A stretch of 64,000 nucleotides of DNA from Escherichia phage TH09. The notes under the pieces were generated by a model that searched no databases, had not been told where the DNA came from, and worked only from the letters and a program-made list of their open reading frames with translations. The stretch lies in sequence record MT446387.1. One strand, 5' to 3'. The translations under genes and the position numbers were made by a program. Below, one piece after another: positions 1,179 through 63,902 of the stretch (the stretch's first letter is position 1; each line of letters begins with the position of its first letter).

Positions 1179-1208
1179 GTTTACTTTTCCTCTTGACTGT
1201 GGTATAAT
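1179..1208 (+). promoter_or_regulatory. sigma70-type early promoter (GTTTAC-N17-TATAAT)
   Basis: gtttacttttcctcttgactgtggtataat about 28 nt upstream of regB ATG; matches T4 early promoter consensus. Confidence 0.6.
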
Positions 1209-1235
1209 TTTTCTATCAGTTAAGAGGAGAATAAC

Positions 1236-1697
1236 ATGACTATCAATACAGAAGTTTTTATCCGTCGAAATAAGCTTCGTCGTCATTTTGAGTCGGAGTT
1301 TCGTCAAATTAACAATGAGATTCGTGAGGCATCAAAAGCAGCAGGGGTCTCATCGTTTCATCTAAAATATTCTCAGCATCTTCTTGATCGTGCAATTCAA
1401 CGGGAGATTGATGAGACATATGTTTTTGAATTATTCCATAAAATAAAAGACCATGTTTTAGAAGTTAATGAATTCCTGAGTATGCCTCCGCGTCCTGACA
1501 TTGACGAGGATTTTATTGATGGGGTTGAATATCGTCCTGGACGTTTAGAAATCACAGATGGAAATCTTTGGCTTGGATTTACGGTTTGTAAGCCTAATGA
1601 GAAGTTCAAAAACCCGTCACTTCAATGCAGGATGGCAATTATCAACAGTCGTCGTTTACCAGGAAAGGCTTCTAAAGCAGTAATTAAAACTCAATGA
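1236..1697 (+). CDS. regB: RegB site-specific endoribonuclease (cleaves GGAG in early mRNAs)
   Basis: 153 aa, N-terminus MTINTEVFIRRNKLRRHFESEF matches my recollection of T4 RegB; syntenic position upstream of tk. Confidence 0.65.
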   Translation: MTINTEVFIRRNKLRRHFESEFRQINNEIREASKAAGVSSFHLKYSQHLLDRAIQREIDETYVFELFHKIKDHVLEVNEFLSMPPRPDIDEDFIDGVEYRPGRLEITDGNLWLGFTVCKPNEKFKNPSLQCRMAIINSRRLPGKASKAVIKTQ

Positions 1698-5340: not shown

Positions 5341-5364
5341 AGTCTCCTTCGGGAGACTTTTTTC
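5341..5364 (+). terminator. intrinsic terminator hairpin (UUCG tetraloop) + U-run
   Basis: agtctcc-ttcg-ggagact followed by tttttt. Confidence 0.6.
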
Positions 5365-5373
5365 ATTTTACCG

Positions 5374-5403
5374 GTTTACTTTCCGTTTGAGTTGTGGTAC
5401 TAT
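5374..5403 (+). promoter_or_regulatory. early promoter (GTTTAC-N17-TACTAT)
   Basis: ccggtttactttccgtttgagttgtggtactat; cassette nearly identical to 45708..45737. Confidence 0.55.
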
Positions 5404-5431
5404 ACAACTATCGAATAAAGAGGAGAACATC

Positions 5432-5620
5432 ATGAAAATTGAAGCACTCAATCAAGAAGGAAATATCTACGTCATCATTAATGGTGATTTTTTCGTCGAC
5501 ATGGATGAAGTTACTAGTGAAGAACTTGTTGAAGTTTTGAAGAAACGTTATAATATGTGTGATGAAGCTGCAACGCATATGGCGTGTGCAATATTCTCTC
5601 TGTCATATGTGGTGGAATAA
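5432..5620 (+). CDS. hypothetical small protein
   Basis: track ORF 5387..5620; start moved to ATG 5432 after SD gaggagaa; the upstream in-frame part is promoter sequence. Confidence 0.45.
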
Positions 5621-6185: not shown

Positions 6186-6215
6186 GTTTACAAGTTGGCA
6201 AGGTTATGGTATAGT
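6186..6215 (+). promoter_or_regulatory. early promoter (GTTTACA-N17-TATAGT)
   Basis: ggtttacaagttggcaaggttatggtatagt with imperfect inverted repeat around the -10. Confidence 0.5.
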
Positions 6216-6243
6216 AATCTTGTCAACTGTCAAGGAGAAGAGA

Positions 6244-6351
6244 ATGAAAATTTTGTTTGTTGTGTATGTGATGATTCAATATAATTACCCAATGTTTACT
6301 TATAATCTGGTGAACAACATTATTGATATGATTCAGAGGAGTATACAATGA
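6244..6351 (+). CDS. small hydrophobic peptide (about 35 aa)
   Basis: strong SD caaggagaag; MKILFVVYVMIQ...; ATGA overlap with next gene. Confidence 0.3.
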   Translation: MKILFVVYVMIQYNYPMFTYNLVNNIIDMIQRSIQ

Positions 6352-6899: not shown

Positions 6900-7421
6900 A
6901 TGTTTATTTCAAGTGGAAGCGGTTTAATTCGTGTTGAATTTAAAAATGACATCTTCCTTAGTCAAGGAGATGATATTATTAAAATGAGTTATGACGAAAT
7001 CAAGAAAATTTGTCATACTCTTGAAAGCCGTGGAAAAGTAAATGCTGTTATTGACATCGGTGATTTATGGGTAACTCTTTATGAAGTATCCGAAGGATTT
7101 AATATTGAAGATGAAAATAACATCTTAGCTATTGATAAAAGAACTGATTTGCTTGATGTATTAAAAGCCTATGAACAGTCAAATGGTGGAAGAAAAGCTG
7201 TATTGATTTATCAAAAACCGCATTCATGTGGAACTGCTTCAATCATTTCAAATATTGAAGGCGAAGCTGATACTTATATGTGTGTTTTAAAAGCTGGTGG
7301 TGACCGTCATCCGGATTTTATTTCTATTCGTCAAAACAATGAAGAAATTTCATTATCAAAATCAGAAGCTGAAGCGATGATTAAGTATTTAACAACCGTT
7401 ACGCCTTCAATGAAAGGATAA
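6900..7421 (+). CDS. hypothetical protein, paralog B of a tandem pair
   Basis: 173 aa; similar to 6348..6893 (EGFNIEDEN; SEAEAMIKYLTTVTPSM). Confidence 0.5.
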   Translation: MFISSGSGLIRVEFKNDIFLSQGDDIIKMSYDEIKKICHTLESRGKVNAVIDIGDLWVTLYEVSEGFNIEDENNILAIDKRTDLLDVLKAYEQSNGGRKAVLIYQKPHSCGTASIISNIEGEADTYMCVLKAGGDRHPDFISIRQNNEEISLSKSEAEAMIKYLTTVTPSMKG

Positions 7422-7423
7422 TT

Positions 7424-7885
7424 ATGATTATTAATGAAAACTCTTGGCACTATAAATTATTCAAATTGTTTAACGATGAATGGCAACGACCTAAGACACT
7501 ATGCGTATATTTTTGGTCTATTGCCATTCCTATATTTTTCGTTTCTATTTTTGGGTGTGCTATACTCGTAGGGCTAACAATTATTTGTGCAGAAAGCCTA
7601 CAACGTTGGCTTATTTTCGGTAGTTTATGGACTCTTCTTCCATCAGCATTTATACTTGCGCTTTTGGTTGTTTTACTTATTATCGGTTCATTTGTTATTC
7701 CTGCACATTTGCATGAAAAATATAAAGATTATAAATGGAAAAAGGATTATGCTTTACACGTAGAAAATATTGATAGGGCGTATAAAGGTTTACCTCCTAT
7801 TCAACCCAAGAAATCGGTTATCGTTGAATTTTTAAAAGCTCGTAAAGCTAAAGTATGTCCTGTTATTGAATATAAGGCTGAATGA
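7424..7885 (+). CDS. integral membrane protein
   Basis: 153 aa with several hydrophobic helices. Confidence 0.45.
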   Translation: MIINENSWHYKLFKLFNDEWQRPKTLCVYFWSIAIPIFFVSIFGCAILVGLTIICAESLQRWLIFGSLWTLLPSAFILALLVVLLIIGSFVIPAHLHEKYKDYKWKKDYALHVENIDRAYKGLPPIQPKKSVIVEFLKARKAKVCPVIEYKAE

Positions 7886-8895
7886 TGAAAACAGTAATGA
7901 AAAGCTATTTTGGTAGTCATCTTTATGGAACTTCTACCCCAGAATCTGATGTAGATTTTAAAGAAATCTTTGTTCCTCCTGCTCGCGATATTCTTATCGG
8001 AAATGTCAAAGAGCACATGAGTAAAAACACTAACAACACATCATCTAAAAACACTAAAGATGATATTGACCATGAACTATACAGTCTTAAATATTTCTTT
8101 AAATTAGCAGCAGATGGTGAAACTGTAGCGTTGGATATGCTTCACACTCCACCTGAACTAGTGGTTAAATCTGATTTGCCTGATGTGTGGAAGTTTATTC
8201 AAGACAACCGTTCTCGTTTTTATACGACTAACATGAAATCCTATTTAGGATATGTCCGCAAGCAAGCTTCTAAATACGGTGTCAAGGGTTCTCGTTTGGC
8301 TGCATTACGTGATGTATTGAAAGTAGTTAATCAAATCCCCGAGCAATGGGTTGATTACCAAGAAGACGGTTCCATTAAGCAGCGTCGCACTAAAGTTGAA
8401 GATATTAAGCATCGTCTTCCAGAAAACGAATTCTGTGAATGGGTGTTCCATAATCATGAGAAAACAGGTCCACAAACGTTCTACACTGTATTGGGTCGTA
8501 AATATCAGACAACGCTTTCTCTTATTGAGCTTAAGCAGTCTTTGAATAAACTTGATGCTGAATACGGTGAACGTGCTCGTAAGGCCGAAGCCAATGAAGG
8601 CATTGATTGGAAAGCACTAAGTCATGCTTGTCGTGGTGGACTCCAACTATTGGAAATTTACAAAACTGGTGACTTGGTTTATCCACTCAAAGATGCTCCA
8701 TTTATTCTCGACGTGAAGTTGGGTAAACATCCATTTAAAACGGTTCAAGAGTTTTTGGAAGATGTGGTCGATCAAGTAGAAGCAGCATCTACTGAAGCTT
8801 CTAAGAACGGTATGCCTAAAACAGTAGACATGAGTTTCTGGGATGACTTCCTTGAGAAGGTCTATCTTGAAAACCACCGAAGTTATTATAAATGA
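7882..8895 (+). CDS. predicted nucleotidyltransferase-fold protein (nrdC.11-like position)
   Basis: 337 aa; N-terminal GSHLYGTSTPESDVDF resembles Pol-beta-type NTase G[SG]-x(n)-DxD motif. Confidence 0.45.
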   Translation: MMKTVMKSYFGSHLYGTSTPESDVDFKEIFVPPARDILIGNVKEHMSKNTNNTSSKNTKDDIDHELYSLKYFFKLAADGETVALDMLHTPPELVVKSDLPDVWKFIQDNRSRFYTTNMKSYLGYVRKQASKYGVKGSRLAALRDVLKVVNQIPEQWVDYQEDGSIKQRRTKVEDIKHRLPENEFCEWVFHNHEKTGPQTFYTVLGRKYQTTLSLIELKQSLNKLDAEYGERARKAEANEGIDWKALSHACRGGLQLLEIYKTGDLVYPLKDAPFILDVKLGKHPFKTVQEFLEDVVDQVEAASTEASKNGMPKTVDMSFWDDFLEKVYLENHRSYYK

Positions 8896-8897
8896 TA

Positions 8898-8922
8898 GGG
8901 AGCCTTCGGGCTCCCTTTTTTA
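8898..8922 (+). terminator. intrinsic terminator hairpin + U-run
   Basis: gggagcc-ttcg-ggctccc followed by ttttttt. Confidence 0.65.
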
Positions 8923-8945
8923 TTTCAAAAATTTTTCACAAAACT

Positions 8946-8975
8946 GTTTACAAGCATAAAGCTTTATGGTACTAT
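8946..8975 (+). promoter_or_regulatory. early promoter (GTTTACA-N17-TACTAT), cassette type
   Basis: aaaatttttcacaaaactgtttacaagcataaagctttatggtactatacaactatc. Confidence 0.6.
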
Positions 8976-9013
8976 ACAACTATCAAAACAAATGAGTAAA
9001 TTGGAGATACAAA

Positions 9014-9214
9014 ATGACTACTTTGAATAAACGTTTCGGTAAAGCTAAATCTGGGTGTGCAGCTGAACGTCGTTATGTTTTCGCTCAGTTAGAAGATGTA
9101 GAGTATCAGATTAATCAAGTTCACATTACTGGTATCGAGCCTATGTGTGGCCTTGAAGCTCTTCGTGAAGTTCGTGACGGGTATCGTCGTGCCATCGAAG
9201 AAATGTCAAAATAA
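9014..9214 (+). CDS. hypothetical small protein
   Basis: 66 aa; SD ttggag. Confidence 0.45.
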   Translation: MTTLNKRFGKAKSGCAAERRYVFAQLEDVEYQINQVHITGIEPMCGLEALREVRDGYRRAIEEMSK

Positions 9215-9253
9215 GTATACAAACTGATAGGACTATGTTATAGTAGTCCTATC
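9215..9253 (+). promoter_or_regulatory. early promoter embedded in a perfect 10-bp inverted repeat
   Basis: gataggacta-tgttatag-tagtcctatc; TATAGT -10 in the loop; SD and ATG at 9272 follow. Confidence 0.45.
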
Positions 9254-9271
9254 AAATCAAAGGAGAATAAA

Positions 9272-10240
9272 ATGAAAACTGTAACTATCAATAAGGGTAT
9301 CTACTTCGGTAAAGAAATCTCTGGAACTTTTGAGCTCTTAGGTGAATGGTTCCCAGATAATGCTCCGGTGGATGCACAAGGAGATGGTAAAGTTTTTGTT
9401 GAAATTGACGGTAAGCGTCGCGGTGTTTGGGTTTACAAATCAGACATTTCATATGATGGTGTAAAAGTTGAAGAAGTTAAAGAATCATATGAAGATATGA
9501 AAACCCGCATTAATAAAAGATTTAATGTTATGGGAATGATGACGAATGGTATTATTAACGGAAACATTCGTTCATTAATTATCTCTGGTGCGGCAGGCAT
9601 TGGTAAAACGTATTCTTTAGATAAAGCTTTAAATAAAGCAAATGATATTGGATACATTGAATATAAAAGCATTAACGGTAAAATCTCTGGTATCGGTCTT
9701 TATGAACAGCTCTGGAATAATCGTGAAGAGAATTCTGTCCTTTTGATTGATGATGTGGATGTTTTCTCTGATATGGACATTCTTAATCTTTTGAAAGCTG
9801 CTCTGGACACTGGAGAGACCCGTAAAGTCTGCTGGAGCACTGCATCTTCTTACTTAGAAGAAAAAGGCATTGAGCGTGAGTTTGAATTTAAAGGAACGAT
9901 TGTTTTTATCACAAACGTTGACATTGACCGCGAATTAGACCGTGGTACTAAACTTGCTCCACATTTACAAGCATTAGTTTCCCGCTCGGTTTATTTAGAT
10001 TTGGGTGTTCACACTAATGAAGAAATTATGGTCAGGGTTGAAGATGTTATTCTTTCAACCGACATGATGCAAAAGCGTGGTCTTTCTGATGAAGAAACTT
10101 ATAAAGCATTATCATGGATGAAAGTCAATGTTAATCGTTTACGCAATGTTTCACTGCGTACTGCTCTTTATCTTGCTGACTTTATTATGACCGACAAAAA
10201 TGGTTGGGAAGAAATTGCTGAGGTTACTCTTCTGAAATAA
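9272..10240 (+). CDS. P-loop ATPase (AAA-like; nrdC.10-like position)
   Basis: 322 aa; Walker A GAAGIGKT, Walker B LLIDDVD. Confidence 0.55.
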   Translation: MKTVTINKGIYFGKEISGTFELLGEWFPDNAPVDAQGDGKVFVEIDGKRRGVWVYKSDISYDGVKVEEVKESYEDMKTRINKRFNVMGMMTNGIINGNIRSLIISGAAGIGKTYSLDKALNKANDIGYIEYKSINGKISGIGLYEQLWNNREENSVLLIDDVDVFSDMDILNLLKAALDTGETRKVCWSTASSYLEEKGIEREFEFKGTIVFITNVDIDRELDRGTKLAPHLQALVSRSVYLDLGVHTNEEIMVRVEDVILSTDMMQKRGLSDEETYKALSWMKVNVNRLRNVSLRTALYLADFIMTDKNGWEEIAEVTLLK

Positions 10241-10341
10241 TTCATAAGAGGCCTTCTATGACAAAAAGGCAGTTCAGAAATAGATTATATGGACTGCCAT
10301 TAAAAAGATGACTAGAATTAAACTGGTAAATGGAGGTAGTG

Positions 10342-10644
10342 ATGTTATACTCAAAGGCTCGTGAAATTTACGAAACTAAAATTAAAGAAGCAGTATTTCA
10401 GTTCGCAACAACGATGCGATGGACAAATGATTGGGAATACTCCAAGAATCATAAGAAGCCCTTGGTGACAAGAAAGGCTCATATGTTAGTGTTAATAGAC
10501 CGTGAGCAGATTAAAGCCCGAGAAGCCCTCCAGAATCATAAAAAGGCTGCCTTTGAATGGTTTATGGATAACACTGCTCCTGAGACTAAGAAAGCAGTGA
10601 GTGCGTGGTTCAGTGGAAAAAATTGTGAAAGAAGTTTCTTTTAG
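10342..10644 (+). CDS. hypothetical protein
   Basis: track ORF 10330..10644; ATG 10342 follows tggaggtagtg SD. Confidence 0.4.
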   Translation: MLYSKAREIYETKIKEAVFQFATTMRWTNDWEYSKNHKKPLVTRKAHMLVLIDREQIKAREALQNHKKAAFEWFMDNTAPETKKAVSAWFSGKNCERSFF

Positions 10645-10646
10645 TT

Positions 10647-10699
10647 GTTTACAATACCGTTCCTCTGTGGTACTATACAACTATCAACTACGGAGGAAC
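10647..10699 (+). promoter_or_regulatory. early promoter + stem-loop cassette (PeSL-like); 3' arm carries the SD
   Basis: gtttacaataccGTTCCTCtgtggtactatacaactatcaactacgGAGGAACa; 7-bp arms gttcctc/gaggaac flank the -10. Confidence 0.55.
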
Positions 10700-10704
10700 A
10701 CAAA

Positions 10705-11232
10705 ATGAACGCTAAAGATATTTTCAACCTGGTAAATTACAACGATGGTAAATTTAAATCAGAAGCACAAAGCAAGTTCTTTAATGACATCTCAATTGGA
10801 GGTGAAATCACTGTTGATGGAGGACAAATTTACAAATCCCGTTGGAATTGGATCGTTATTATTGACGAGATCGGTATTGTAGAAATTTACAAGAATACGA
10901 ATAAAAATCGTACATTACACTGGTCTCGTGATACTAACGAACAGTACAAAAAGGATAAAGCATCTAAATTATCTCGTGTAACTCAAGAAGATATTGAGTT
11001 CATCAAGAAAGATATTTTGATGTATGATAACTTAATTGCTGAAGAGCAAGCTGTTATTGATAAATTTGACGAGATTAAAGCTTCTCGTGAAATTCCTGAT
11101 TTTATGAAAGAATCAGTAAATGAACGATACAATCTCATTTCAGAGCGTATTGAAACTTACAAAAAGCAAAGAGCTGAACGCCAGAACACTCTTCGGAAGT
11201 TTGAAGAACGGTTAAAGACGGTACTCGCATAA
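10705..11232 (+). CDS. hypothetical protein with C-terminal coiled coil
   Basis: track ORF 10645..11232; start moved to ATG 10705 after cassette SD ggagg; C-terminal heptad-like ...ETYKKQRAERQNTLRKFEERLKTVLA. Confidence 0.45.
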   Translation: MNAKDIFNLVNYNDGKFKSEAQSKFFNDISIGGEITVDGGQIYKSRWNWIVIIDEIGIVEIYKNTNKNRTLHWSRDTNEQYKKDKASKLSRVTQEDIEFIKKDILMYDNLIAEEQAVIDKFDEIKASREIPDFMKESVNERYNLISERIETYKKQRAERQNTLRKFEERLKTVLA

Positions 11233-11287
11233 CCGCTTTATACCAAGGATGGTATAATGGTTCTAAGCCCTTTTAATTGAGATTATT

Positions 11288-11695
11288 ATGAAACAGTTGA
11301 TAATTAAAAGATTGAATTTATTGATATGTTGTTTATGTATAGCAATTGCATATGGTTATTATGCTATTAATGATTATATGCATTATAAAGATTATGATGT
11401 TACTGTAGTTAATACCTTTACAGGAACTCAAGGAAAGGGGTCTAGTTTATCGTTTATTGCCGTATATGAACTAAATGACGGTTATAGATTTAGCGAATAT
11501 ATTTCACCGGAGATGTATTCTTCAATAGAAAAAGGTGATAATATTACTGTAAGTTTACGTCCTTTCGACGTAAAACAGACATTGTTTGATAATATTGTTT
11601 GGTTCTTTGGAATGGTATTAGTTCAATCTGTGTGTGGTGCTTATATAGTCTGTTCCATCTTATTCTGTATATTTAGTAAAATTGAAATTGAGTGA
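11288..11695 (+). CDS. membrane protein (N- and C-terminal TM segments)
   Basis: 135 aa; hydrophobic N-terminus LLICCLCIAIAYGYY and C-terminus. Confidence 0.45.
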   Translation: MKQLIIKRLNLLICCLCIAIAYGYYAINDYMHYKDYDVTVVNTFTGTQGKGSSLSFIAVYELNDGYRFSEYISPEMYSSIEKGDNITVSLRPFDVKQTLFDNIVWFFGMVLVQSVCGAYIVCSILFCIFSKIEIE

Positions 11696-11702
11696 GGAAA
11701 AT

Positions 11703-12590
11703 ATGTCAGTAGTAATTAATAATGTCAATGCAGTAATTAAATCTTTAGTTAATAAAAAATTGAATGAATGGACTGTACTTCGTCGTGGAGAGCCAGATAA
11801 ATTTTTTCATAGATTTAACCCAACTTTGGATTTGAATGTTATTGACAGAGATGTTCATGCAGAAATTTTAGATAAGTTTAAAGTTGATATTGGATTTGGA
11901 TTAGAAAAACATTTACAGCGAACAAACGGATCTGGAATGAGTTTATCTAATCGCATTATGAAAGCACTTAATAAAATTGGAGCATTGTCTCGTATTAACG
12001 CGAGTGAAATCCTTCGCAATTATAATAAAGGATACGACCTTTATGGTCGACTAATGCCGAAATTATCATTTGACCAAATGATTGCGGATTTGTGGGAAAA
12101 TCAACGACGATTATTAGCATTAGGCGCTCGATTAGCTAAAGGTCTAGATAAACAAATGATTTTTAAGACCAATAATACAGAAGACCTTAAATGCTTTAAA
12201 TTTAGTATTCGCGGAGATGATTATTACATCAGAGCTCGCTCTACAGATTATGTTAATATGGGGCATCATCTCTGTTTAGCTTTTGAAGTTTTAAAAGAAG
12301 TCGGAACATTAGAATATTCATCTGGTGCAAAATGTCCAATTGGTTCAAGTTGTATTTTAATTTATCGCCCGGATGAATCCAGTTCAACTAAATTGCCTAC
12401 AAAACCTGTACCAGTTCGTAGTAACGAAAAACATTCTGAACAAATTGATTATTTTAATAAGCAAATTGAAGAGCTGAATATTTCTATTCAACAGTATGAC
12501 GATGAAATTTTCAGACTATCTGGATTGAGTAGTAAAGCTAAATCTGAGCGTGAAAAATTAATTAAAATTGTTGATTTACTTAAATCTTAA
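11703..12590 (+). CDS. hypothetical protein with C-terminal coiled-coil tail
   Basis: track ORF 11682..12590; ATG 11703 after gaggaaa SD; C-terminus ...IEELNISIQQYDDEIFRLSGLSSKAKSEREKLIKIVDLLKS. Confidence 0.45.
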   Translation: MSVVINNVNAVIKSLVNKKLNEWTVLRRGEPDKFFHRFNPTLDLNVIDRDVHAEILDKFKVDIGFGLEKHLQRTNGSGMSLSNRIMKALNKIGALSRINASEILRNYNKGYDLYGRLMPKLSFDQMIADLWENQRRLLALGARLAKGLDKQMIFKTNNTEDLKCFKFSIRGDDYYIRARSTDYVNMGHHLCLAFEVLKEVGTLEYSSGAKCPIGSSCILIYRPDESSSTKLPTKPVPVRSNEKHSEQIDYFNKQIEELNISIQQYDDEIFRLSGLSSKAKSEREKLIKIVDLLKS

Positions 12591-13624: not shown

Positions 13625-13653
13625 TTTACTTTGCCACAAGGATGTGGTATAAT
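13624..13653 (+). promoter_or_regulatory. early promoter (GTTTACT-N17-TATAAT)
   Basis: agtttactttgccacaaggatgtggtataat; 31/32 identical to promoter at 58748..58777; lies within the 3' end of the upstream gene. Confidence 0.55.
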
Positions 13654-18401: not shown

Positions 18402-20215
18402 CAATTGAAAAAGAAATTGAAGGATTGATTCATAAAACTAATAAAGACCTTTTAAACGAGAATGCTAATAAAGATTCTCGTGTTTTTCCAACTCAACGGG
18501 ACCTTATGGCTGGTATTGTGTCTAAACACATTGCCAAAAATATGGTCCCGTCTTTTATTATGAAAGCGCATGAAAGCGGAATTATTCATTTCCATGATAT
18601 TGATTATTCCCCTGCTCTTCCATTTACTAATTGTTGTTTAGTAGATTTAAAAGGAATGCTTGAGAACGGATTTAAGCTTGGCAATGCGCAGATTGAAACT
18701 CCTAAATCAATTGGCGTTGCTACTGCAATTATGGCACAAATTACTGCGCAAGTTGCTTCCCATCAATATGGCGGAACGACTTTTGCGAATGTAGATAAAG
18801 TACTTTCTCCTTATGTTAAACGCACCTATGCAAAACATATTGAGGATGCAGAAAAATGGCAAATCGCTGATGCGTTGAATTATGCTCAATCTAAAACAGA
18901 AAAAGACGTATACGATGCATTCCAAGCTTATGAATATGAAGTAAATACTCTCTTTAGTTCAAACGGACAAACACCTTTTGTAACAATTACATTTGGTACA
19001 GGAACTGACTGGACTGAACGAATGATTCAGAAAGCAATTCTGAAAAATCGTATTAAAGGTCTCGGTCGTGATGGGATAACTCCTATTTTCCCTAAGCTTG
19101 TTATGTTCGTTGAAGAAGGTGTTAATCTTTACAAAGACGATCCGAACTATGATATTAAACAGCTTGCTCTAGAGTGCGCAAGCAAAAGGATGTATCCTGA
19201 TATTATTTCAGCTAAGAACAATAAAGCTATCACCGGCTCATCTATTCCTGTTTCTCCAATGGGTTGTCGTAGTTTCTTGAGCGTATGGAAAGATTCGACT
19301 GGCAATGAAATTCTTGATGGACGTAATAATCTCGGTGTTGTAACACTGAATCTTCCTCGTATCGCGTTAGATTCTTATATTGGAACACAATTCAATGAAC
19401 AGAAATTTGTTGAATTGTTCAATGAACGAATGGATTTATGTTTTGAAGCATTGATGTGTAGAATTAGTTCCTTAAAAGGAGTTAAAGCGACTGTTGCTCC
19501 TATTCTTTACCAAGAAGGTGCATTCGGGGTTCGTCTTAAACCTGATGACGATATAATTGAGTTATTTAAAAATGGCAGAAGTTCAGTGTCTCTAGGATAC
19601 ATTGGTATTCACGAATTGAATATTCTTGTCGGTCGTGATATTGGACAAGAAATTTTAACTAAAATGAATGCTCATCTTAAGCAGTGGACTGAAAGAACTG
19701 GGTTTGCTTTTAGTTTATATTCGACTCCTGCTGAAAACCTTTGTTATCGCTTCTGTAAACTTGATACAGAAAAATATGGAAGCGTAAAAGATGTTACTGA
19801 TAAAGGCTGGTACACTAATAGTTTCCATGTTTCAGTAGAAGAAAATATTACTCCGTTTGAAAAGATTTCTCGTGAAGCGCCATATCATTTCATTGCGACA
19901 GGTGGTCACATTTCTTATGTTGAACTTCCTGATATGAAAAATAATCTAAAAGGTCTTGAGGCCGTATGGGATTATGCTGCACAGCATTTAGATTATTTTG
20001 GTGTTAACATGCCAGTAGATAAGTGTTTTACATGCGGAAGTACTCATGAAATGACTCCTACTGAAAACGGATTTGTTTGTTCTATCTGTGGAGAAACTGA
20101 TCCTAAAAAGATGAACACAATAAGAAGAACATGTGGTTATTTGGGAAATCCGAACGAACGCGGATTTAATCTTGGCAAAAATAAAGAAATCATGCATAGG
20201 GTTAAACACCAATGA
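18398..20215 (+). CDS. nrdD: anaerobic ribonucleoside-triphosphate reductase
   Basis: 605 aa continuous ORF; C-terminal Zn ribbon CFTCG...CSICG and glycyl-radical motif RRTCGYLG; no intron interruption. Confidence 0.9.
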   Translation: MTIEKEIEGLIHKTNKDLLNENANKDSRVFPTQRDLMAGIVSKHIAKNMVPSFIMKAHESGIIHFHDIDYSPALPFTNCCLVDLKGMLENGFKLGNAQIETPKSIGVATAIMAQITAQVASHQYGGTTFANVDKVLSPYVKRTYAKHIEDAEKWQIADALNYAQSKTEKDVYDAFQAYEYEVNTLFSSNGQTPFVTITFGTGTDWTERMIQKAILKNRIKGLGRDGITPIFPKLVMFVEEGVNLYKDDPNYDIKQLALECASKRMYPDIISAKNNKAITGSSIPVSPMGCRSFLSVWKDSTGNEILDGRNNLGVVTLNLPRIALDSYIGTQFNEQKFVELFNERMDLCFEALMCRISSLKGVKATVAPILYQEGAFGVRLKPDDDIIELFKNGRSSVSLGYIGIHELNILVGRDIGQEILTKMNAHLKQWTERTGFAFSLYSTPAENLCYRFCKLDTEKYGSVKDVTDKGWYTNSFHVSVEENITPFEKISREAPYHFIATGGHISYVELPDMKNNLKGLEAVWDYAAQHLDYFGVNMPVDKCFTCGSTHEMTPTENGFVCSICGETDPKKMNTIRRTCGYLGNPNERGFNLGKNKEIMHRVKHQ

Positions 20216-20682
20216 ATTATGATAGATTTTATCCTTGCGATTTTGTTAATGGCCCTGGTTGCAGGGTCGTTCTTTTCGTTACAGGTTGTTTGCATAAATG
20301 CGAAGGGTGTTATAATAAATCAACATGGAATGCTAGAAATGGTATTCCATTCACTGGAGAGACACTAGAGCAATTAATTGAATGTTTGAATAATGATTAT
20401 ATAGAAGGATTAACTATAACTGGGGGTGACCCTCTTTATCCTGATAACAGAGATGTGATTCATTGCATTGTTCAAACAGTAAAAAATCTTTATCCCAATA
20501 AAAGCATTTGGTTGTGGACAGGATATAAATTTGAAGATATTAAACAACTAGAAATGCTTAAATATGTTGATGTTATTATTGATGGGAAGTATGAGAAAAA
20601 TCTTCCGACCAAAAAGCTGTGGCGAGGATCAGATAATCAGCGACTTTGGTCAAATACCGATGGGGTGTGGAAACATGATTAA
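20212..20682 (+). CDS. nrdG: anaerobic RNR activating enzyme (radical SAM)
   Basis: 156 aa; cysteine cluster CLHKCEGC; ATGA overlap with nrdD. Confidence 0.85.
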   Translation: MNYDRFYPCDFVNGPGCRVVLFVTGCLHKCEGCYNKSTWNARNGIPFTGETLEQLIECLNNDYIEGLTITGGDPLYPDNRDVIHCIVQTVKNLYPNKSIWLWTGYKFEDIKQLEMLKYVDVIIDGKYEKNLPTKKLWRGSDNQRLWSNTDGVWKHD

Positions 20683-24698: not shown

Positions 24699-24722
24699 AA
24701 ACCAAAACAAAGAGGATATTAA

Positions 24723-25925
24723 ATGAAAGTATGTATTTTTATGGCTCGAGGTCTTGAAGGTTGTGGTGTAACAAAATTCTCACTCGAGCAACGTGATTGG
24801 TTTATTAAAAATGGTCATGAAGTAACTTTGGTTTATGCTAAAGATAAATCATTTACTCGTAATTGCGCGCATGATTATAAATCATTTTCAATTCCGGTTT
24901 TATTGGCAAAAGAATATGATAAAACACTTAAGCTGGTAAATGATTGTGATATTCTAATTATCAATTCGGTTCCTGCTACTTCGGTTGAAGAAGACACGAT
25001 TAATAACTATAAAAAAATTATTGATAACATTAAACCTTCTGTTCGTGTTGTAGTTTATCAACATGACCATTCTTCTCTTTCTTTGCGTCGAAATTTGGGA
25101 TTAGAAGAAACTGTTCGTCGAGCTGATGTTATTTTTAGCCATTCTGATAATGGTGATTTTAATAAAGTTCTGATGAAAGAGTGGTATCCTGAAACAGTTT
25201 CTCTGTTTGATGATATTGAAGAAGCGCCGACAGTATATAACTTTCAGCCTCCGATGGATATTGCGAAGGTTCGATCAACCTACTGGAAAGATGTTTCTGA
25301 AATTAACATGAATATCAACCGTTGGATTGGTCGTACTACTACATGGAAAGGTTTTTATCAGATGTTTGATTTTCATGAAAAACATCTTAAACCTGCAGGA
25401 CTAAGTACTATTATGGAAGGTCTGGAACGTTCTCCAGCGTTTATTCCTATTAAAGAAAAAGGAATTCCATACGAGTATTATCGTCTTCATCAAGTAGACC
25501 AAATTAAAATTGCTCCTAATTTGCCAACGCAAATTCTTGACCGTTATGTAAATAGCGAAATGCTTGAACGCATGAGTAAATCCGGTTTTGGTTATCAGTT
25601 GAGTAAGTTGGATAAAAAATATCTACAACGTTCTTTAGAATATACTCATCTCGAGCTTGGTGCATGTGGAACAATTCCGGTATTTTGGAAATCTACTGGC
25701 GAAAATTTAAAATTCCGTGTTGATAATAATCCTTTGACCTCGCATGATAGCGGTATCATTTGGTTTGATGAAAATGACATGGAATCAACATTTGAACATA
25801 TTAAAGAACTGTCATCTGACCGAGCTCTTTATGACCGTGAGCGAGAAAAAGCATATGAATTTTTGTATCAGCATCAAGATTCAAGCTTCTGCTTTAAAGA
25901 ACAGTTTGACATTATTACAAAATAA
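24723..25925 (+). CDS. a-gt: DNA alpha-glucosyltransferase
   Basis: 400 aa; N-terminus ...CIFMARGLEGCGVTKFSLEQRDWFIKNGHEVTLVYAKDKSF matches T4 alpha-gt. Confidence 0.85.
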   Translation: MKVCIFMARGLEGCGVTKFSLEQRDWFIKNGHEVTLVYAKDKSFTRNCAHDYKSFSIPVLLAKEYDKTLKLVNDCDILIINSVPATSVEEDTINNYKKIIDNIKPSVRVVVYQHDHSSLSLRRNLGLEETVRRADVIFSHSDNGDFNKVLMKEWYPETVSLFDDIEEAPTVYNFQPPMDIAKVRSTYWKDVSEINMNINRWIGRTTTWKGFYQMFDFHEKHLKPAGLSTIMEGLERSPAFIPIKEKGIPYEYYRLHQVDQIKIAPNLPTQILDRYVNSEMLERMSKSGFGYQLSKLDKKYLQRSLEYTHLELGACGTIPVFWKSTGENLKFRVDNNPLTSHDSGIIWFDENDMESTFEHIKELSSDRALYDREREKAYEFLYQHQDSSFCFKEQFDIITK

Positions 25926-35353: not shown

Positions 35354-35366
35354 TAGAATAAATCTA

Positions 35367-35388
35367 GGGACCTCCGGGTCCCTTTTTC
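35367..35388 (+). terminator. intrinsic terminator hairpin + U-run
   Basis: gggacc-tccg-ggtccc followed by ttttt. Confidence 0.6.
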
Positions 35389-35469
35389 ATACAAGTAATA
35401 TAAATCTATACTTATGAAAAACAGATGATTCTGGACCTTTAGAATTCCCTAAAAAATTTTCACAAAACT

Positions 35470-35499
35470 GTTTACAAGACTGTTCTTCCATGGTACTAT
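35470..35499 (+). promoter_or_regulatory. early promoter cassette (GTTTACA-N17-TACTAT)
   Basis: aaaattttcacaaaactgtttacaagactgttcttccatggtactatacaactatcaact. Confidence 0.6.
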
Positions 35500-35536
35500 A
35501 CAACTATCAACTATTGATACAGATTTGGAGAATAAA

Positions 35537-35773
35537 ATGAAAATTGTTATGGGATGCTTAGCAGTTTGTTTAGTTGCATTAGCAGCAGTTCCATTTGTTA
35601 GTGTTGAAAATGATACTCAACCTGTGATTGAATCTAGCACCGTTATTCACACTAATGGTAAAATATCAGTTAAAATTGATGATAATCTTCATGTGAATAC
35701 AAATGGATCTTTAGGTGTGCAAATGGGTAATACCTGCATAAGCACTACTGGAGTAATTACTACTTGCATTTGA
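35537..35773 (+). CDS. secreted small protein
   Basis: track ORF 35525..35773; ATG 35537 after ttggagaataaa SD; signal peptide MKIVMGCLAVCLVALAAVPF. Confidence 0.45.
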   Translation: MKIVMGCLAVCLVALAAVPFVSVENDTQPVIESSTVIHTNGKISVKIDDNLHVNTNGSLGVQMGNTCISTTGVITTCI

Positions 35774-35783
35774 GGAAATTATT

Positions 35784-36164
35784 ATGAAAATCGCTATTTT
35801 GGTTATTGCATTAGGTCTTACTGGTTGTGTAGCTCAAGGACCGGTAGTAAATCAGTCTGATGTAGGAAAAATTGTAAACTGTTCAAGCAAATTTTATAAT
35901 CCTAATGTCAAGTGTTATAAAGAAGCTCCAAAACAGACAGTAGAACAAATGCAGGCGAATTTTGACGAAGCTATTCGTCCAGATGAATCTGCTCAAGCAT
36001 ATCGTAATTCGGATGTAATTACACGCGAAGAAAAAATTGAAAACTACTGCGCCGAGCTTTGGGCTAATTGGGCTAATAATTACCAATGGCGTACTGGTAA
36101 AAATGCTCCGATGGAGTATGTAGTGAATTCTTATAATTCATGTGTAAAAAATTTGACTAAGTGA
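35784..36164 (+). CDS. lipoprotein
   Basis: 126 aa; signal peptide with lipobox LTGC. Confidence 0.5.
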   Translation: MKIAILVIALGLTGCVAQGPVVNQSDVGKIVNCSSKFYNPNVKCYKEAPKQTVEQMQANFDEAIRPDESAQAYRNSDVITREEKIENYCAELWANWANNYQWRTGKNAPMEYVVNSYNSCVKNLTK

Positions 36165-47809: not shown

Positions 47810-47839
47810 GTTTACTTTCCTTTCTAACGATGATATGAT
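47810..47839 (+). promoter_or_regulatory. early promoter (GTTTACT-N17-TATGAT)
   Basis: caaaaagttgtttactttcctttctaacgatgatatgat; downstream 7-bp inverted repeat tgatagc/gctatca spans the SD. Confidence 0.5.
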
Positions 47840-47865
47840 AGCTTCTGAAGTATACGGAGGCTATC

Positions 47866-48489
47866 ATGATTATTAATCCTGCAGATGTTGAACAGTTATC
47901 TATAAAAGCTGAAAGCGTTGATTTTCAATATGATATGTATAAAAAGGTCTGTGAAAAATTTACTGATTTTGAGCAGTCTGTTCTTTGGCAATGTATGGAA
48001 GCAAAAAAGAATGAAGCTCTTCACAGACAGTTGAATAAAATCATTAAAAAGCATTTAACTAAATCGCCTTATCAATTATATCGTGGTATATCAAAATCGA
48101 CAAAAGAACTTATTAAAGATTTGCAAGTTGGAGAAGTGTTTTCAACGAACAGGGTAGATTCATTTACTACTAGTTTGCATACAGCGTGTTCTTTTTCTTA
48201 TGCTGAATATTTCACTGAAATAGTACTTCGCTTAAAAACTGATAAAGCTTTTAATTATTCTGACCATATCAGCGATATTATACTTTCTTCTCCTAATACT
48301 GAGTTTAAGTACACGTATGAAGATACTGATGGGTTAGATTCAGAAAGAACTGATAACTTAATGATGATTGTACATGAACAAGAATGGATGATTCCAATTG
48401 GAAAGTATAGAATAACTTCTATTTCAAAAGAAAAATTACACGATTCATTTGGAACATTTAAAGTTTATGATATTGAGGTAGTTGAATGA
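47866..48489 (+). CDS. modB: ADP-ribosyltransferase (ModB-like)
   Basis: 207 aa; ART R-S-E motifs YRG, STN/STS, EQEWMIP; size and position as T4 modB. Confidence 0.6.
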   Translation: MIINPADVEQLSIKAESVDFQYDMYKKVCEKFTDFEQSVLWQCMEAKKNEALHRQLNKIIKKHLTKSPYQLYRGISKSTKELIKDLQVGEVFSTNRVDSFTTSLHTACSFSYAEYFTEIVLRLKTDKAFNYSDHISDIILSSPNTEFKYTYEDTDGLDSERTDNLMMIVHEQEWMIPIGKYRITSISKEKLHDSFGTFKVYDIEVVE

Positions 48490-53019: not shown

Positions 53020-53049
53020 GTTTACTTCCTCGGTTAGTTGTGGTATTAT
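53020..53049 (+). promoter_or_regulatory. early promoter (GTTTACT-N17-TATTAT)
   Basis: aaaaagttgtttacttcctcggttagttgtggtattat. Confidence 0.55.
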
Positions 53050-53076
53050 AACACCATAGCTACTGAGGATAATAAA

Positions 53077-53589
53077 ATGAAAATTTATCGTGTTGAATCA
53101 TCGTTTAGCGCATTAAATGATGATAGTGGTATAGTCAAAATTAGGCAAGAGTTATGCGTTCAATCAACTCCTTATCGTGGATTTGATTCTATGAAAACTC
53201 GAACTTGGCTAAAATTTTGTGGTATTAATTCATCGTCATTTCATCATCATAGCGATAATTATGAAAGCCATGAAAGTATTCCTATTCCACACGATGATAA
53301 GTTATTAGTTGAAAATGCTAATGATGTTATTAAAACTAAATGGAATAAAGATTATTCACGAATTGAAAATTATATTCCATTGTGGTTTATTGCATTATAT
53401 CATTTTGCTTTCGCTAGTGAATATGATATGATGAGATGGTTCACTCGAGAAGAGCGTGAAGACTTAAAAGAACGTGGAATGTACATTGCGATTTATGAAG
53501 TGCCAGATGACCAAGTTATCATTGGCGGGCACCAAGTAATGTTCCGTAAATCCCATGCCGAATTAAAAGGCTTTATTACCTTAGATTAA
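53077..53589 (+). CDS. hypothetical protein (motB-like position)
   Basis: 170 aa from ATG 53077 after gaggataataaa SD. Confidence 0.35.
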   Translation: MKIYRVESSFSALNDDSGIVKIRQELCVQSTPYRGFDSMKTRTWLKFCGINSSSFHHHSDNYESHESIPIPHDDKLLVENANDVIKTKWNKDYSRIENYIPLWFIALYHFAFASEYDMMRWFTREEREDLKERGMYIAIYEVPDDQVIIGGHQVMFRKSHAELKGFITLD

Positions 53590-55012: not shown

Positions 55013-55046
55013 ATTTGCATAAAGTTTAAAATTTTTTCATAAAACT

Positions 55047-55095
55047 ATATACATCAGTAGTTGATTATGGTACTATATCAATATCAACTACTGAT
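55047..55095 (+). promoter_or_regulatory. early promoter cassette with perfect 13-bp inverted repeat around -10
   Basis: ATCAGTAGTTGATtatggtactatatcaatATCAACTACTGAT then ttggagaataaaatg. Confidence 0.5.
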
Positions 55096-55119
55096 ACAGA
55101 AAATAACTTGGAGAATAAA

Positions 55120-55389
55120 ATGGAAAACTTAATTATCATCGAGCAATCTTTTAACGATTATGGTATGGCTTACGGTTATCGTGCGATAATGGAAGATTCT
55201 CGTGGATGTGTTATCGATATTGCTGAATGTAAAGATTTACTGCAGCTTTTGAAGATTGTTCGTAAAAATTGGGATTGTGAAAATATTAAAGTTCGAGTTG
55301 TTACAGAAGAAGAAACTGTTTTTCATGATGTAAAATTCGCTAAAGGTGCTGCTACTCTTCTGAAACGTATCGCTCCAATGTTTAATTAA
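55120..55389 (+). CDS. hypothetical small protein
   Basis: track ORF 55108..55389; ATG 55120 after ttggagaataaa SD. Confidence 0.4.
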   Translation: MENLIIIEQSFNDYGMAYGYRAIMEDSRGCVIDIAECKDLLQLLKIVRKNWDCENIKVRVVTEEETVFHDVKFAKGAATLLKRIAPMFN

Positions 55390-62431: not shown

Positions 62432-62989
62432 ATGCAGAAAACGAATCCGGGTTTACAGAGACTATTTCAGATTCCGACATTTACCCTATCGAACAATGAC
62501 TTGACTAGTGAAATGAAGGTCAAAATTGCTGATACAGCAAGATACTCTTTAAAACAAAATCCTAATCAGGATAAAGCAGAAGTCATCGAAAGATGCCGTA
62601 TCGCTGTGTATGCAGAGTTTTTTGTAGCAGATTGGCTGAGCGGGTATGTTAACAAAGGCCAAGAGGATGTTAATGACCCGTATACATACGCATGGGATGT
62701 ATTGGCGCATCCAAGATATTGCGGGCTTCGTGTAGAAGTTAAGACACACCAAACTGACTCACGTTGGATTTCGGTAACAACTGGATGCAGCGGAGAATAT
62801 CCATACGGTTCTGGAATAAATCTAGGGCCCATTCTGAATCACCAAGTCGCTGACTGTATAATTATATTCAACACTAAAGAAATTCATCCAGGTGTCATCC
62901 AATACACTCCGAAGTTCATCGGTGATAGAGAAGACCTTCGTAAAGTTGTAAGAAAAAGCAACTACAACGGATGGTATCTTTCCATTTAA
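62432..62989 (+). CDS. denB: endonuclease IV DenB (by position and size)
   Basis: 185 aa downstream of rIIB. Confidence 0.55.
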   Translation: MQKTNPGLQRLFQIPTFTLSNNDLTSEMKVKIADTARYSLKQNPNQDKAEVIERCRIAVYAEFFVADWLSGYVNKGQEDVNDPYTYAWDVLAHPRYCGLRVEVKTHQTDSRWISVTTGCSGEYPYGSGINLGPILNHQVADCIIIFNTKEIHPGVIQYTPKFIGDREDLRKVVRKSNYNGWYLSI

Positions 62990-63015
62990 AAATTTTCACA
63001 AAACGGTTTACATAC

Positions 63016-63045
63016 CACAAGGACTGTGGTACTATACAACTATCA
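63016..63045 (+). promoter_or_regulatory. early promoter cassette (GTTTACA-N17-TACTAT)
   Basis: aaaaattttcacaaaacggtttacataccacaaggactgtggtactatacaactatcaact. Confidence 0.55.
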
Positions 63046-63069
63046 ACTGATACGGATTTGGAGAATAAA

Positions 63070-63276
63070 ATGTTTACTACAGCTGAATTAAAACGAGCAA
63101 AAGCTAAGAAAGGGCAAGGAAAATATAAAGCTGAATTAGTTAAAGAACTTCAGTTTGCTGAGGCTGAATTGAATTCAATGATTATTCAAAATGCTCCAGA
63201 AACTGAAATTGCTCTTAAGCGTATTGCGAATAAGTGTCTTCGTGATGCAATCGTCGATCTTTTAGCGGATTATTGA
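63070..63276 (+). CDS. hypothetical small protein
   Basis: track ORF 62971..63276; ATG 63070 after ttggagaataaa SD. Confidence 0.4.
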   Translation: MFTTAELKRAKAKKGQGKYKAELVKELQFAEAELNSMIIQNAPETEIALKRIANKCLRDAIVDLLADY

Positions 63277-63545: not shown

Positions 63546-63730
63546 GTTCATTGTGGTGGTGTTTTATTTGGTTAATTAGTATTCCATTAATTTGTTTAAC
63601 ATTTACTTTTGTGATGAGGTTATTATGAAAATTTTGAATTCTGTACTTATTGCTTGTGCATGGTGGGTTGCGCAAGTTTCAGCGGTAGTAGTTGGTATTC
63701 ACATTTATTACGAATATTTTTAAAAAAGTT

Positions 63731-63783
63731 GTTTACAAGACTGTTCCTCTGTGGTACTATTACCCTATCAACTACGGAGGAAC
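63731..63783 (+). promoter_or_regulatory. early promoter + stem-loop cassette (same type as 10647..10699)
   Basis: gtttacaagactGTTCCTCtgtggtactattaccctatcaactacgGAGGAACag. Confidence 0.55.
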
Positions 63784-63788
63784 AGAAA

Positions 63789-63902
63789 ATGAAAAAGATT
63801 ATTAAAGCTATATGGAATGTAGTTATAATACTAATAGTTTTGAGTATATTCCCAATCGTTTTAATGATTGATGTATTAAACGCTTACTTTGGATTTATGT
63901 GA
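63789..63902 (+). CDS. small membrane peptide (37 aa)
   Basis: track ORF 63654..63902; ATG 63789 after ggagg SD; MKKIIKAIWNVVIILIVLSIFPIVLMIDVL. Confidence 0.35.
   Translation: MKKIIKAIWNVVIILIVLSIFPIVLMIDVLNAYFGFM

Follow-up and report, generated by a model that had tools for sequence, protein, structure and literature searches.

The DNA analysed here is a 64,000-nt stretch of Escherichia phage TH09 (MT446387.1), read on one strand; it is called the window, and all coordinates refer to it. It carries a family of seven cassettes, all on the + strand and at the positions listed in the initial annotation, in which an early promoter runs into a short leader with a Shine-Dalgarno sequence (SD) and a start codon. 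The focal cassette (10617..10707, +) precedes a homologue of nrdC.8 and has a leader of subtype A. Its -35 element GTTTACA lies at 10647-10653, its -10 hexamer TACTAT at 10671-10676, and its ATG at 10705. A note in the T4 record (Pe133295; GTTTAC at 133331) sets the transcription start (+1) 36 nt past the G of GTTTAC. The +1 of the focal cassette is therefore predicted at 10683, with a 5' untranslated region of 22 nt. The T4 orthologue of this cassette is at 53943.

The window belongs to a Tequatrovirus (T4-like phage) and is 97-100% identical to phage JLBYU31 and its relatives. Megablast with 8000-12000 matched ~780 phage records, with Escherichia phage JLBYU31 at the top (98.5%) and many Tequatrovirus isolates among them, and 34900-36100 is 100% identical to JLBYU31. 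Positions 1-61205 are colinear with T4 from 64 kb down to 1, and 61206-64000 with T4 from 168903 down to ~166.5 kb. The sense strand of the early genes is the + strand. As judged from this alignment and strand, the window is the T4 early region, from vs/regB through nrdC, genes 55, 43 and 41, dda, motB, and rIIA/B to ndd.

The other six cassettes are also on the + strand, and each copy is named below by a single position. Copy 5374 (5341..5434) lies upstream of a mobD.5 homologue. It has an intrinsic terminator (5341-5358) with a T-run, followed by GTTTACT at 5374, TGGTACTAT, ACAACTATCg, the leader AAGAGGAGAACATC, and ATG at 5432. Copy 8946 (8897..9016) precedes a 66-aa open reading frame (ORF) that is absent from T4. 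Here, a terminator (8897-8916) and an AT-rich UP tract are followed by GTTTACA at 8946, a spacer with the palindrome CATAAAGCTTTATG, TGGTACTAT, ACAACTATCAA, a leader of its own with GGAGATAC, and ATG at 9014. Copy 35470 (35440..35539; ATG at 35537), whose subtype B leader ends in GGAGAATAAAATG, stands before a 78-aa ORF, missing from T4, and then imm.1. Copy 55047 (55017..55122; ATG at 55120) has the -35 element ATATACA and a subtype B leader, and precedes an 89-aa ORF, the gene before cef. Copy 63006 (62976..63072; ATG at 63070), downstream of denB, has a subtype B leader and the spacer palindrome CCACAAGGACTGTGG; the two small ORFs behind it (68 and 87 aa) are both deleted in T4. Copy 63731 (63701..63791; ATG at 63789), before an ndd.4 homologue, is of subtype A, and its block past the -10 is TACCCTATCAACT. 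Comparison of cassette positions with T4, proposed in the initial annotation, placed all seven at orthologous sites, namely mobD.5, nrdC.10, nrdC.8, imm.1, the cef region, ndd.6, and ndd.4; the orthologues of copies 5374 and 63731 are at T4 58780 and 166807. T4 has ~12 family copies genome-wide, including those at motA, e.8, and the frd/32 region.

The family plan is GTTTAC (-36 to -31), a variable 15-nt spacer, the extended -10 TGGTACTAT, the block (A/T)C(A/C)(A/C)(C/T)TATC, a leader of 22-40 nt with a GGAG SD, and ATG. An A/T-rich UP tract precedes the -35 in every copy. The conserved block after the -10 comprises the discriminator ACAACT and the initial transcribed ATCAACT. The GGAG-type SD and the ATG follow within 25-43 nt of the -10 in all seven, and the downstream ORFs encode 37-175 aa. 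The GTTTACA assigned to every copy in the initial annotation is found in five of the seven, with GTTTACT in copy 5374 and ATATACA in copy 55047.

Searching for GTTTAC-N15-TGnTAnnnT with an SD and ATG behind it yielded ~19 clear early-promoter modules on the + strand, among which the seven TACTAT copies form a separate group. The sequence TGGTACTATNNNNNTATC has seven exact matches in the window and 12 at ≤2 mismatches (1.65 expected by chance), and GTTTACA-N14-TGGTACTAT has 15 matches at ≤3 mismatches (0.75 expected). The extended -10 is 100% identical within the family and 72-84% identical in other promoter pairs. The 13 nt past the -10 are 78% identical within the family versus 37-45% in other pairs, the UP region 49% versus 32-38%, and the spacer 34% versus 27-33%. 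The higher identity of the -10, the 13 nt downstream of it, and the UP region within the family thus shows that the similarity exceeds the generic early-promoter consensus. In favour of a generic origin, the consensus of T4 early promoters, with UP, -35, TGn, and -10, is unusually long (PMC2988021), and the spacers of the seven are no more alike than those of other promoters (34% vs 33%). Every one of the seven copies, however, combines TACTAT with the ACAACTATC block, a combination absent from the 12 other promoters, and entire leaders, for example GATACGGATTTGGAGAATAAAATG, recur. With the 78% identity past the -10, this makes it extremely unlikely that the loci share only the generic consensus. 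That possibility, raised in the initial annotation, did not hold in the block-wise alignment, where the downstream blocks are more alike within the family; generic consensus as the sole source of the similarity was rejected on this comparison. The description of essentially the same 60-70 bp at each locus was too strong. Whole modules are 48-73% identical in pairs, and the alignment shows conserved blocks combined in a mosaic rather than near-identical 70-mers.

Very probably, the seven loci are T4-type immediate-early promoter/leader cassettes, which have been published as T4 early promoters (Pe) and as promoter-early-stem-loop cassettes (PeSLs). PeSLs, first described from RB49 and phi1, consist of an AT-rich tract, a promoter, a stem-loop, and an SD with ATG (Arbiol et al. 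2010, PMC2839356). Their stem-loops in RB49/phi1 lie mostly between the -35 and -10 or over the -10, and were read as terminators or attenuators (PMC2839356). PeSLs have also been described in PST/T4, where the promoter reads TTTACW-N17-TAYWAT and the ndd region shows an exchange, and in nt-1/KVP40 (Comeau et al. 2014, PMC4122927). Recombination between cassettes to give mini-circles is a further PeSL trait. The cassettes of the window share with them the AT-rich tract, the sigma-70-like promoter, the 3' SD with ATG, and, in some copies, the stem-loop. They are likewise clustered in hyperplastic regions beside small variable ORFs, with indel or exchange junctions inside the element, and the ndd-region exchange of 2014 corresponds to 63006-63791 here. 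TTTAC(A/T) or TATACA, N17, TACTAT preceded by TGG, and an A/T-rich upstream block are present in all seven. The stem-loop is clear in five of the seven, as upstream terminators in copies 5374 and 8946 and as -10-bracketing stems in copies 10647, 55047, and 63731. Copy 35470 has none above background, and copies 63006 and 8946 have short spacer palindromes only. The stem-loop just upstream of the promoter, as drawn for PST, applies here only to copies 5374 and 8946, whereas the -10-bracketing stems match RB49 PeSL subclasses. The likeness to T4-type PeSLs noted initially was borne out: the cassettes fit the published description, and indel junctions relative to T4 coincide exactly with four of the seven.

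T4 early promoters combine UP, -35, TGn, and -10 elements with an additional consensus (Hinton 2010, PMC2988021), and early-promoter activity has been reported for mobD.5, regB, and motA of T4 (PMC1702504, PMC3014915, PMC2988021). The cassettes have the UP tract, GTTTAC, and TGn extended -10 and are orthologous to T4 promoters, so that promoter activity here is predicted by analogy with T4. Their positions are orthologous and their sequences near-identical to T4 Pe, T4 motA belongs to the same family, and the subtype B leader equals the GGAGAAUAAAA consensus. They differ from T4 Pe in belonging to another phage isolate with different genes behind four cassettes. Both the family and the mobility of its members have been described before in T4 and close relatives. 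The novelty was over-rated initially, given the published T4 Pe promoters and PST/T4 PeSLs, and as a catalogue item the set adds little, being orthologues of mapped T4 early promoters and T4/PST PeSLs.

The conserved end of the leader can be identified with a known site, which is one value of the present set. The sequence GGAGAATAAAATG has six matches at ≤1 mismatch (0.28 expected), every one directly downstream of an early promoter. The subtype B leader end is exactly GGAGAATAAAA+TG; exact GGAGAATAAAA occurs at 35527, 55110, 63060, and 9262, and near matches at 1226 and 53067. Efficient cleavage by T4 RegB/S1 requires single-stranded GGAGAAUAAAA, with the consensus GGAGRAYARAA (Durand et al. 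2006, PMC1702504). Subtype B matches this early intergenic consensus, and its promoter-initiated leaders are predicted to be unstructured. It is thus an optimal RegB/S1 site by sequence, and the conserved 3' end of the cassette is explained, at this level, as an SD combined with a RegB/S1 site. Neither subtype A (GGAGGAACACA) nor the leader of copy 5374 (GGAGAACATCA) follows the consensus. This agrees with the T4 data, where RegB cleaves the nrdC.8 SD to a moderate degree in vivo and the mobD.5 transcript, with reverse-transcriptase stops at its promoter, is insensitive (PMC1702504). The GGAU of T4 motB.2 is also cut (PMC1702504). The two leader subtypes proposed initially account for five of the seven copies (A: 10647, 63731; B: 35470, 55047, 63006), and copies 5374 and 8946 have other leaders.

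From the T4 orthologues, host sigma-70 RNA polymerase would fire the cassette promoters immediately post-infection. RegB with S1 would then cut GGAG, optimally in subtype B and moderately in subtype A (nrdC.8), as in T4. In T4, regB and motA are early and cut by RegB in their SD (PMC3014915, PMC2988021); RegB cuts within GGAG, and RNase E and G process the RNA afterwards (Uzan and Miller 2010, PMC3014915). Early firing together with such cutting would make expression a short pulse of translation followed by inactivation (PMC3014915).

Hairpins bracketing the -10 were claimed for several copies, and folding of read-through RNA supports them in three of the seven. The fold is significant in copies 10647 (-20.9 kcal/mol, z -5.23), 63731 (-23.2 kcal/mol, z -4.81), and 55047 (-20.2 kcal/mol, z -4.66), and marginal in copy 5374 (-14.0 kcal/mol, z -2.0). 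No significant hairpin was found in the read-through folds of copies 35470 (-7.5 kcal/mol, z +0.9), 63006 (-10.0 kcal/mol, z -0.1), and 8946 (-7.0 kcal/mol, z +0.1). Leaders begun at the predicted +1 fold at 0 to -0.8 kcal/mol (0 for copy 10647), so the expectation that cassette-initiated leaders are free of structure agrees with the prediction. At nrdC.8, the read-through-only hairpin spans 10659..10699 (+). Its 5' arm GTTCCTCTGTGGT (10659-10671) is the spacer plus TGG, its 3' arm ACTACGGAGGAAC (10687-10699) holds the SD, and its 15-nt loop holds the -10 and the +1; 11 Watson-Crick and two G.U pairs form the stem. The hairpin at ndd.4 (63741..63785, +; CTGTTCCTCTGTGGT / ACTACGGAGGAACAG) also occludes the SD, with 13 Watson-Crick and two G.U pairs. 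In copy 55047, a perfect 13-bp inverted repeat (55053..55095, +; ATCAGTAGTTGAT / ATCAACTACTGAT) surrounds the -10; its 3' arm stops 24 nt short of the ATG and leaves out the SD.

Similar hairpins are found at early promoters outside the family. The regB promoter (1179..1238, +), with the -10 TATAAT, has an SD-occluding hairpin (TTTTCCTCTTGACTG / CAGTTAAGAGGAGAA; z -4.80), and the promoter of the motB.2 homologue (53020..53079, +) has one from spacer to SD (TTCCTCGGTTAGTTGTGG / CACCATAGCTACTGAGGA; duplex -23.1, z -5.5). The promoter at 6186..6246 (+) has a tight hairpin bracketing the -10 (AGTTGGCAAGGTTA / TAATCTTGTCAACT; 12 Watson-Crick and two G.U pairs) that leaves the SD uncovered; its T4 counterpart has 14 Watson-Crick pairs. 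The same tight geometry is seen at the promoters 9215-9274 and 41189-41250. At promoter 47810, before a modB homologue, a 14-bp hairpin (47834..47868, +) has the -10 hexamer in its 5' arm and the SD and ATG in its 3' arm. This hairpin was flagged by the terminator scan and is predicted to be another read-through-only SD trap. A structured modB RNA was mentioned by Durand et al. (PMC1702504).

The duplex between a promoter's own spacer and own leader reaches z ≤ -4 in nine of the 19 promoters, including regB (1179), motB.2 (53020), 6186, 9215, and 41189, and the mean over promoters was reached by none of 20000 permutations. Among unique T4-like modules from the window, T4, and IMG/VR, 25 of 84 have stems scoring ≥8, compared with four of 247 swapped controls. 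Stems of this kind are found at ~12 of 29 T4 early promoters, among them those of alc, alt.-3, and 30.8. The hairpins are a general feature of about half of the early promoters here and are not family-specific. They show two geometries. The long stems (regB, nrdC.8, ndd.4, motB.2, alc, and modB) have a loop of 15-17 nt and the SD as 3' arm. The tight stems have a loop of 8-10 nt around the -10 and stop 15-24 nt before the ATG. Long stems with the SD as 3' arm are outside the five published PeSL stem-loop positions, and neither PeSL paper (PMC2839356, PMC4122927) treats translation or RegB.

The predicted effect on the SD differs between loci. The SD of copy 10647 is unpaired with a probability of 0.10 in read-through RNA versus 0.83 in cassette-initiated RNA, and that of copy 63731 with 0.00 versus 0.84; in both, the 3' arm is ACTACGGAGGAAC(AG) with the SD inside. 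In a spacer-swap test, the spacer of each of the 19 promoters was exchanged for the other 18. The own spacer specifically closes the SD at 1179, 10647, 63731, and 53020, and weakly at 35470. At 6186, 9215, 41189, and 55047, the SD is more accessible with the own spacer than with most of the swapped ones (at 55047, 0.83 vs a swapped mean of 0.56). Occlusion of the SD as a general property of cassettes or early promoters was rejected by this test (p = 0.89), and the 13-bp repeat of copy 55047 as an SD trap by the position of its 3' arm. The initial claim that the read-through hairpin hides the SD is thus strong for copies 10647 and 63731, weak for 35470, and does not apply to 55047. In the models, occlusion is bimodal and locus-specific: among the seven cassettes it affects two, and among the 19 promoters about five. 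Pairing of the SD in RNA that comes from upstream is predicted for 10647, 63731, 1179, 53020, and 47810, and is not predicted for 55047, 35470, 63006, 8946, and 5374.

The pattern of change in the stems bears on whether they act as RNA. The regB promoters of three clades (100, 77, and 68% protein identity) have differing arms that are complementary to each other, always between the spacer and GGAG; by per-sequence folds they are TTTTCCTCTTGACTG/CAGTTAAGAGGAGAA, TTCTCCTCTAGTTG/CAACTAGAGGAGAA, and TCTCCTGTAAG/CTTACAGGAGA. Tequatrovirus nrdC.8 promoters have the arms GTTCCTCTGTGGT/ACTACGGAGGAAC; a 68-70% clade has TCTCCAGTAG/CTACTGGAGG, and a third clade has a tight stem. Between the ndd.4 hairpin of T4 and that of the window, three stem positions have changed, and pairing is kept at all three. 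RNAalifold on a MAFFT alignment of the regB promoters found only two compensatory pairs, in an alignment slipped by one register, and the per-sequence folds give the clearer picture. A metagenome scan at the nrdC.8 start-codon region found nine loci with seven variants, too few for formal covariation statistics, and one extra change from G-C to G.U.

An action of the inverted repeats as DNA, in the form of cruciforms, protein-binding palindromes, or recombination hot spots for shuffling, with no RNA role, is very unlikely on these data. The repeats do sit in promoter DNA that is melted and supercoiled, those at 55047 (13 bp) and 9215 (11 bp) have perfect palindromic arms, and RB49/phi1 PeSL crossovers were mapped in or near stem-loops (PMC2839356). 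However, with symmetric scoring, internal mismatches of the stems are G.T in 18 cases and A.C in four over 22 distinct stems, and eight versus none in the window alone. The sense RNA is more stable than the antisense RNA at 15 of 16 loci, by 5.0 kcal/mol on average, and the T4 junctions fall at the ACAACTATCAA block or the SD-ATG(AAAAT) end, outside the stems. Hairpins that span the -10 on the sense strand, with compensatory evolution, are common at T4-type early promoters, in some with the spacer as an anti-SD, and seem to be under-described. That about half of T4-type early promoters overlap a hairpin predicted only in read-through RNA, and conserved by compensatory change, is a further value of the analysis.

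The authors of the PeSL studies proposed that the stem-loops terminate or attenuate upstream polymerase, and on that account the -10-bracketing stems would not be translational or RegB shields. An RB49 PeSL stem-loop placed between a promoter and lacZ reduced expression as much as rrnB T1 (PMC2839356), although this drop fits termination, translational, or stability effects alike. The hairpins are stable (-17 to -24 kcal/mol), and the four tight ones (6186, 9215, 41189, and 55047) are clear of the SD and need another role. A U-run, on the other hand, follows none of nine hairpins; the sequences past the 3' arms are ACAAAATG, AAAATGAA, ACAGAAAA, TAACATGA, and similar. The scan for stems with T-runs finds canonical terminators separately, upstream of promoters 5374, 8946, and 45708, and does not call the + strand hairpins. 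A G+C-rich stem with a U-run is found only in those separate upstream stems (5341, 8897, and 45672) and in no + strand stem bracketing a -10; the latter were rejected as canonical intrinsic terminators by their missing U-runs. T4 middle genes, moreover, are expressed through extended early transcripts (PMC2988021). Termination or attenuation is somewhat unlikely as the function of these stems.

It is tentatively proposed that the stem-loops are RNA elements selected on the sense strand, and that the subset pairing the spacer with the GGAG SD acts as promoter-specific translational and RegB insulators. In about half of the early promoters, including three of the seven family copies, the spacer is predicted to be complementary to the first transcribed bases, so that the hairpin could form only in RNA that reads through from upstream. 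RegB is inhibited by secondary structure in T4 experiments. Read-through RNA of 10647, 63731, regB, motB.2, and modB would then be untranslated and protected from RegB at that cistron, which would tie expression at these SD-occluding loci to the cassette's own promoter. Only RNA from that promoter would be translated and then cut by RegB, and RNA reading through from upstream early or middle promoters would be silent and RegB-resistant there. The genes concerned would be confined to the immediate-early pulse, and long middle-mode transcripts would stay intact. The tight hairpins (55047, 6186, 9215, and 41189) stop short of the SD and must therefore serve something other than hiding it; they may act in attenuation, in coupling, or as a protective 3' end once RegB has cut.

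Several observations weigh against this account of the cassettes and their hairpins. Over the 19 promoters, own spacers do not lower SD accessibility (0.42 vs 0.44 swapped, p = 0.89), and by folding z-scores four of the seven family copies have no significant hairpin. Pyrimidine-rich TTTCC/TTCCTC lies by the -35 in several promoters, and the anti-SD complementarity could be partly a promoter feature. Some of the hairpins could be opened by ribosomes that finish translating the preceding gene, whose stop codon, at copy 10647, precedes the -35 by 3 nt. The loci behind the strand asymmetry and the G.U excess include paralogues and orthologues, and their p-values are optimistic. Function in TH09 is carried over by analogy from T4.

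The same stop codon, ~12 nt before the 5' arm, also fits translational coupling to the upstream gene. This role, or one as RNA-stability devices that leave a protective 3' end on the upstream message after a RegB/RNase E cut, is consistent with the tight hairpins, which end 15-24 nt before the ATG and just 5' of GGAG, where RegB cutting is followed by RNase E and G processing (PMC3014915). However, the spacing between stop codon and hairpin ranges from 3 to ~27 nt across loci, and several hairpin promoters come after canonical terminators or long non-coding gaps. Stability or coupling is an unlikely explanation of the hairpins as a whole.

The closest precedent for the proposed insulators is a group of hairpins that sequester ribosome-binding sites and contain a late promoter, at T4 e, soc, 49, and I-TevI and at mobE of Aeh1 (PMC3014915). 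In the four T4 genes, the hairpin represses translation, and the late promoter lies in the 5' arm (PMC3014915). The promoters of 10647, 63731, regB, motB.2, and modB are similarly inside or at the 5' arm, and their short transcripts are predicted to lack that arm. The promoters in e, soc, 49, and I-TevI are late (gp55, TATAAATA) and give a delay, whereas the internal promoters here are of the early sigma-70 type. The 5' arm here is the -35/-10 spacer itself, and instead of a delay, confinement to the immediate-early pulse is predicted. The two groups may work by a similar mechanism without belonging to one class. If the proposal is true, it extends the hairpin logic of these late promoters to sigma-70 early promoters, gives PeSL stem-loops a post-transcriptional role, and explains the hairpins at the tightly dosed regB, alc, modB, and ndd.4. 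By tying translation and RegB sensitivity to the own promoter, the SD-occluding subset would also clarify how an immediate-early pulse is obtained despite extensive read-through. It would further bear on the engineering of T4-like phages, where gene insertion behind such cassettes is attractive.

The cassettes are also sites of gene gain and loss, of which they offer a quantified example as regulatory breakpoints in T4-like phages. The homology chain between the window and T4 has 40 block edges. Five of them fall in early-promoter modules, which make up 3.6% of the window (p = 0.014), and four in family cassettes, which make up 1.4% (p = 0.002). The four family junctions (8986, 35550, 55127, and 63072) each represent an insertion of 200-440 bp in the window or a deletion in T4, and begin at most ~13 nt from the cassette ATG or inside the ACAACTATCAA block. 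The 8986 junction is inside the cassette, and the window carries there the 66-aa ORF and a second promoter that are absent from T4. At 35550, the difference is the 78-aa ORF before imm.1, with ATGAAAAT microhomology, and its presence or absence is polymorphic among phage genomes. At 55127, T4 has an identical cassette followed by an unannotated in-frame remnant of 19 codons of the 89-aa ORF. At 63072, T4 retains an unannotated remnant of eight codons (MKIAEIEL) of the 87-aa ORF, and two ORFs are gone. These remnants, at T4 ~6610-6550 and 167019-166993, correspond to 55120-55389 and 63070-63545 here, and both deletions begin no more than a few codons from the cassette ATG. The 63006 region has a third arrangement in an IMG/VR locus (L074).

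The slot between nrdC.11 and nrdC.10 (~8900-9270 here) has at least four different contents across phage genomes, and alternative slot contents occur in hundreds of genomes. In T2 (L137:780-1560), it holds a 161-aa gene annotated as 'RNA polymerase ADP-ribosylase', bracketed by direct repeats of the terminator and UP-element block, and other genomes have inserts of ~480 or ~740 bp. The unit with the 66-aa ORF (8923-9277) is shared with Mosigvirus mobillu (L136:1501-1855) at 91% identity in an unrelated gene context. The shared unit starts past the -10 of the upstream cassette, takes in the leader, and ends just beyond the hairpin of the downstream promoter.

One spacer is found in combination with three leaders, and the leader of the cef copy has another spacer at T4 e.8. 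These combinations indicate that the family copies are, by sequence, paralogues kept mosaic by recombination. The cassettes of the cef region (55053-55095) and T4 e.8 (70696) have a common leader and different spacers, and the perfect 13-nt complement of the own leader is found in the cef copy only. This arm looks like the product of a recent templated (snap-back) event rather than of gradual point mutation. The junction positions, the slot polymorphism, and the sharing with Mosigvirus fit the published model of PeSL shuffling. The arrangement resembles the morons of lambdoid phages, small accessory genes with their own promoter and sometimes a terminator. Morons, however, have no conserved flanks (PMC2839356), whereas the conserved regulatory cassette itself supplies the homology for indels here.

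Outside the cassettes, differences in homing endonucleases or introns make up the majority of the breakpoints. The T4 elements missing from the window are mobD, the nrdD intron with I-TevII, mobC, and mobB, and the dam/segF/soc and mobA/60 regions also differ. Differences from T4 are sited at 6918-7881, 18933-18936, 20212-20232, 24707-24732, 44440-45659, and 58348-58413. The Rfam scan of the entire window returned no family, hence none for the cassettes or hairpins. For the seven cassette-linked small ORFs tested, Pfam gave no match, and PHROGs placed them only in families of unknown function. The 68-aa ORF behind copy 63006 (63070-63273) has a weak match (E = 9e-4) to phrog_6200, to which the 66-aa ORF behind copy 8946 (9014-9211) belongs, and the two may be distant paralogues by this match.

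A spacer palindrome, CCACAAGGA(C)TGTGG, is common to three early promoters (13632-13649, 58756-58773, and 63014-63031) and lies wholly between the -35 and -10. The spacer with this palindrome is also present in diverged T4-like contigs of IMG/VR.

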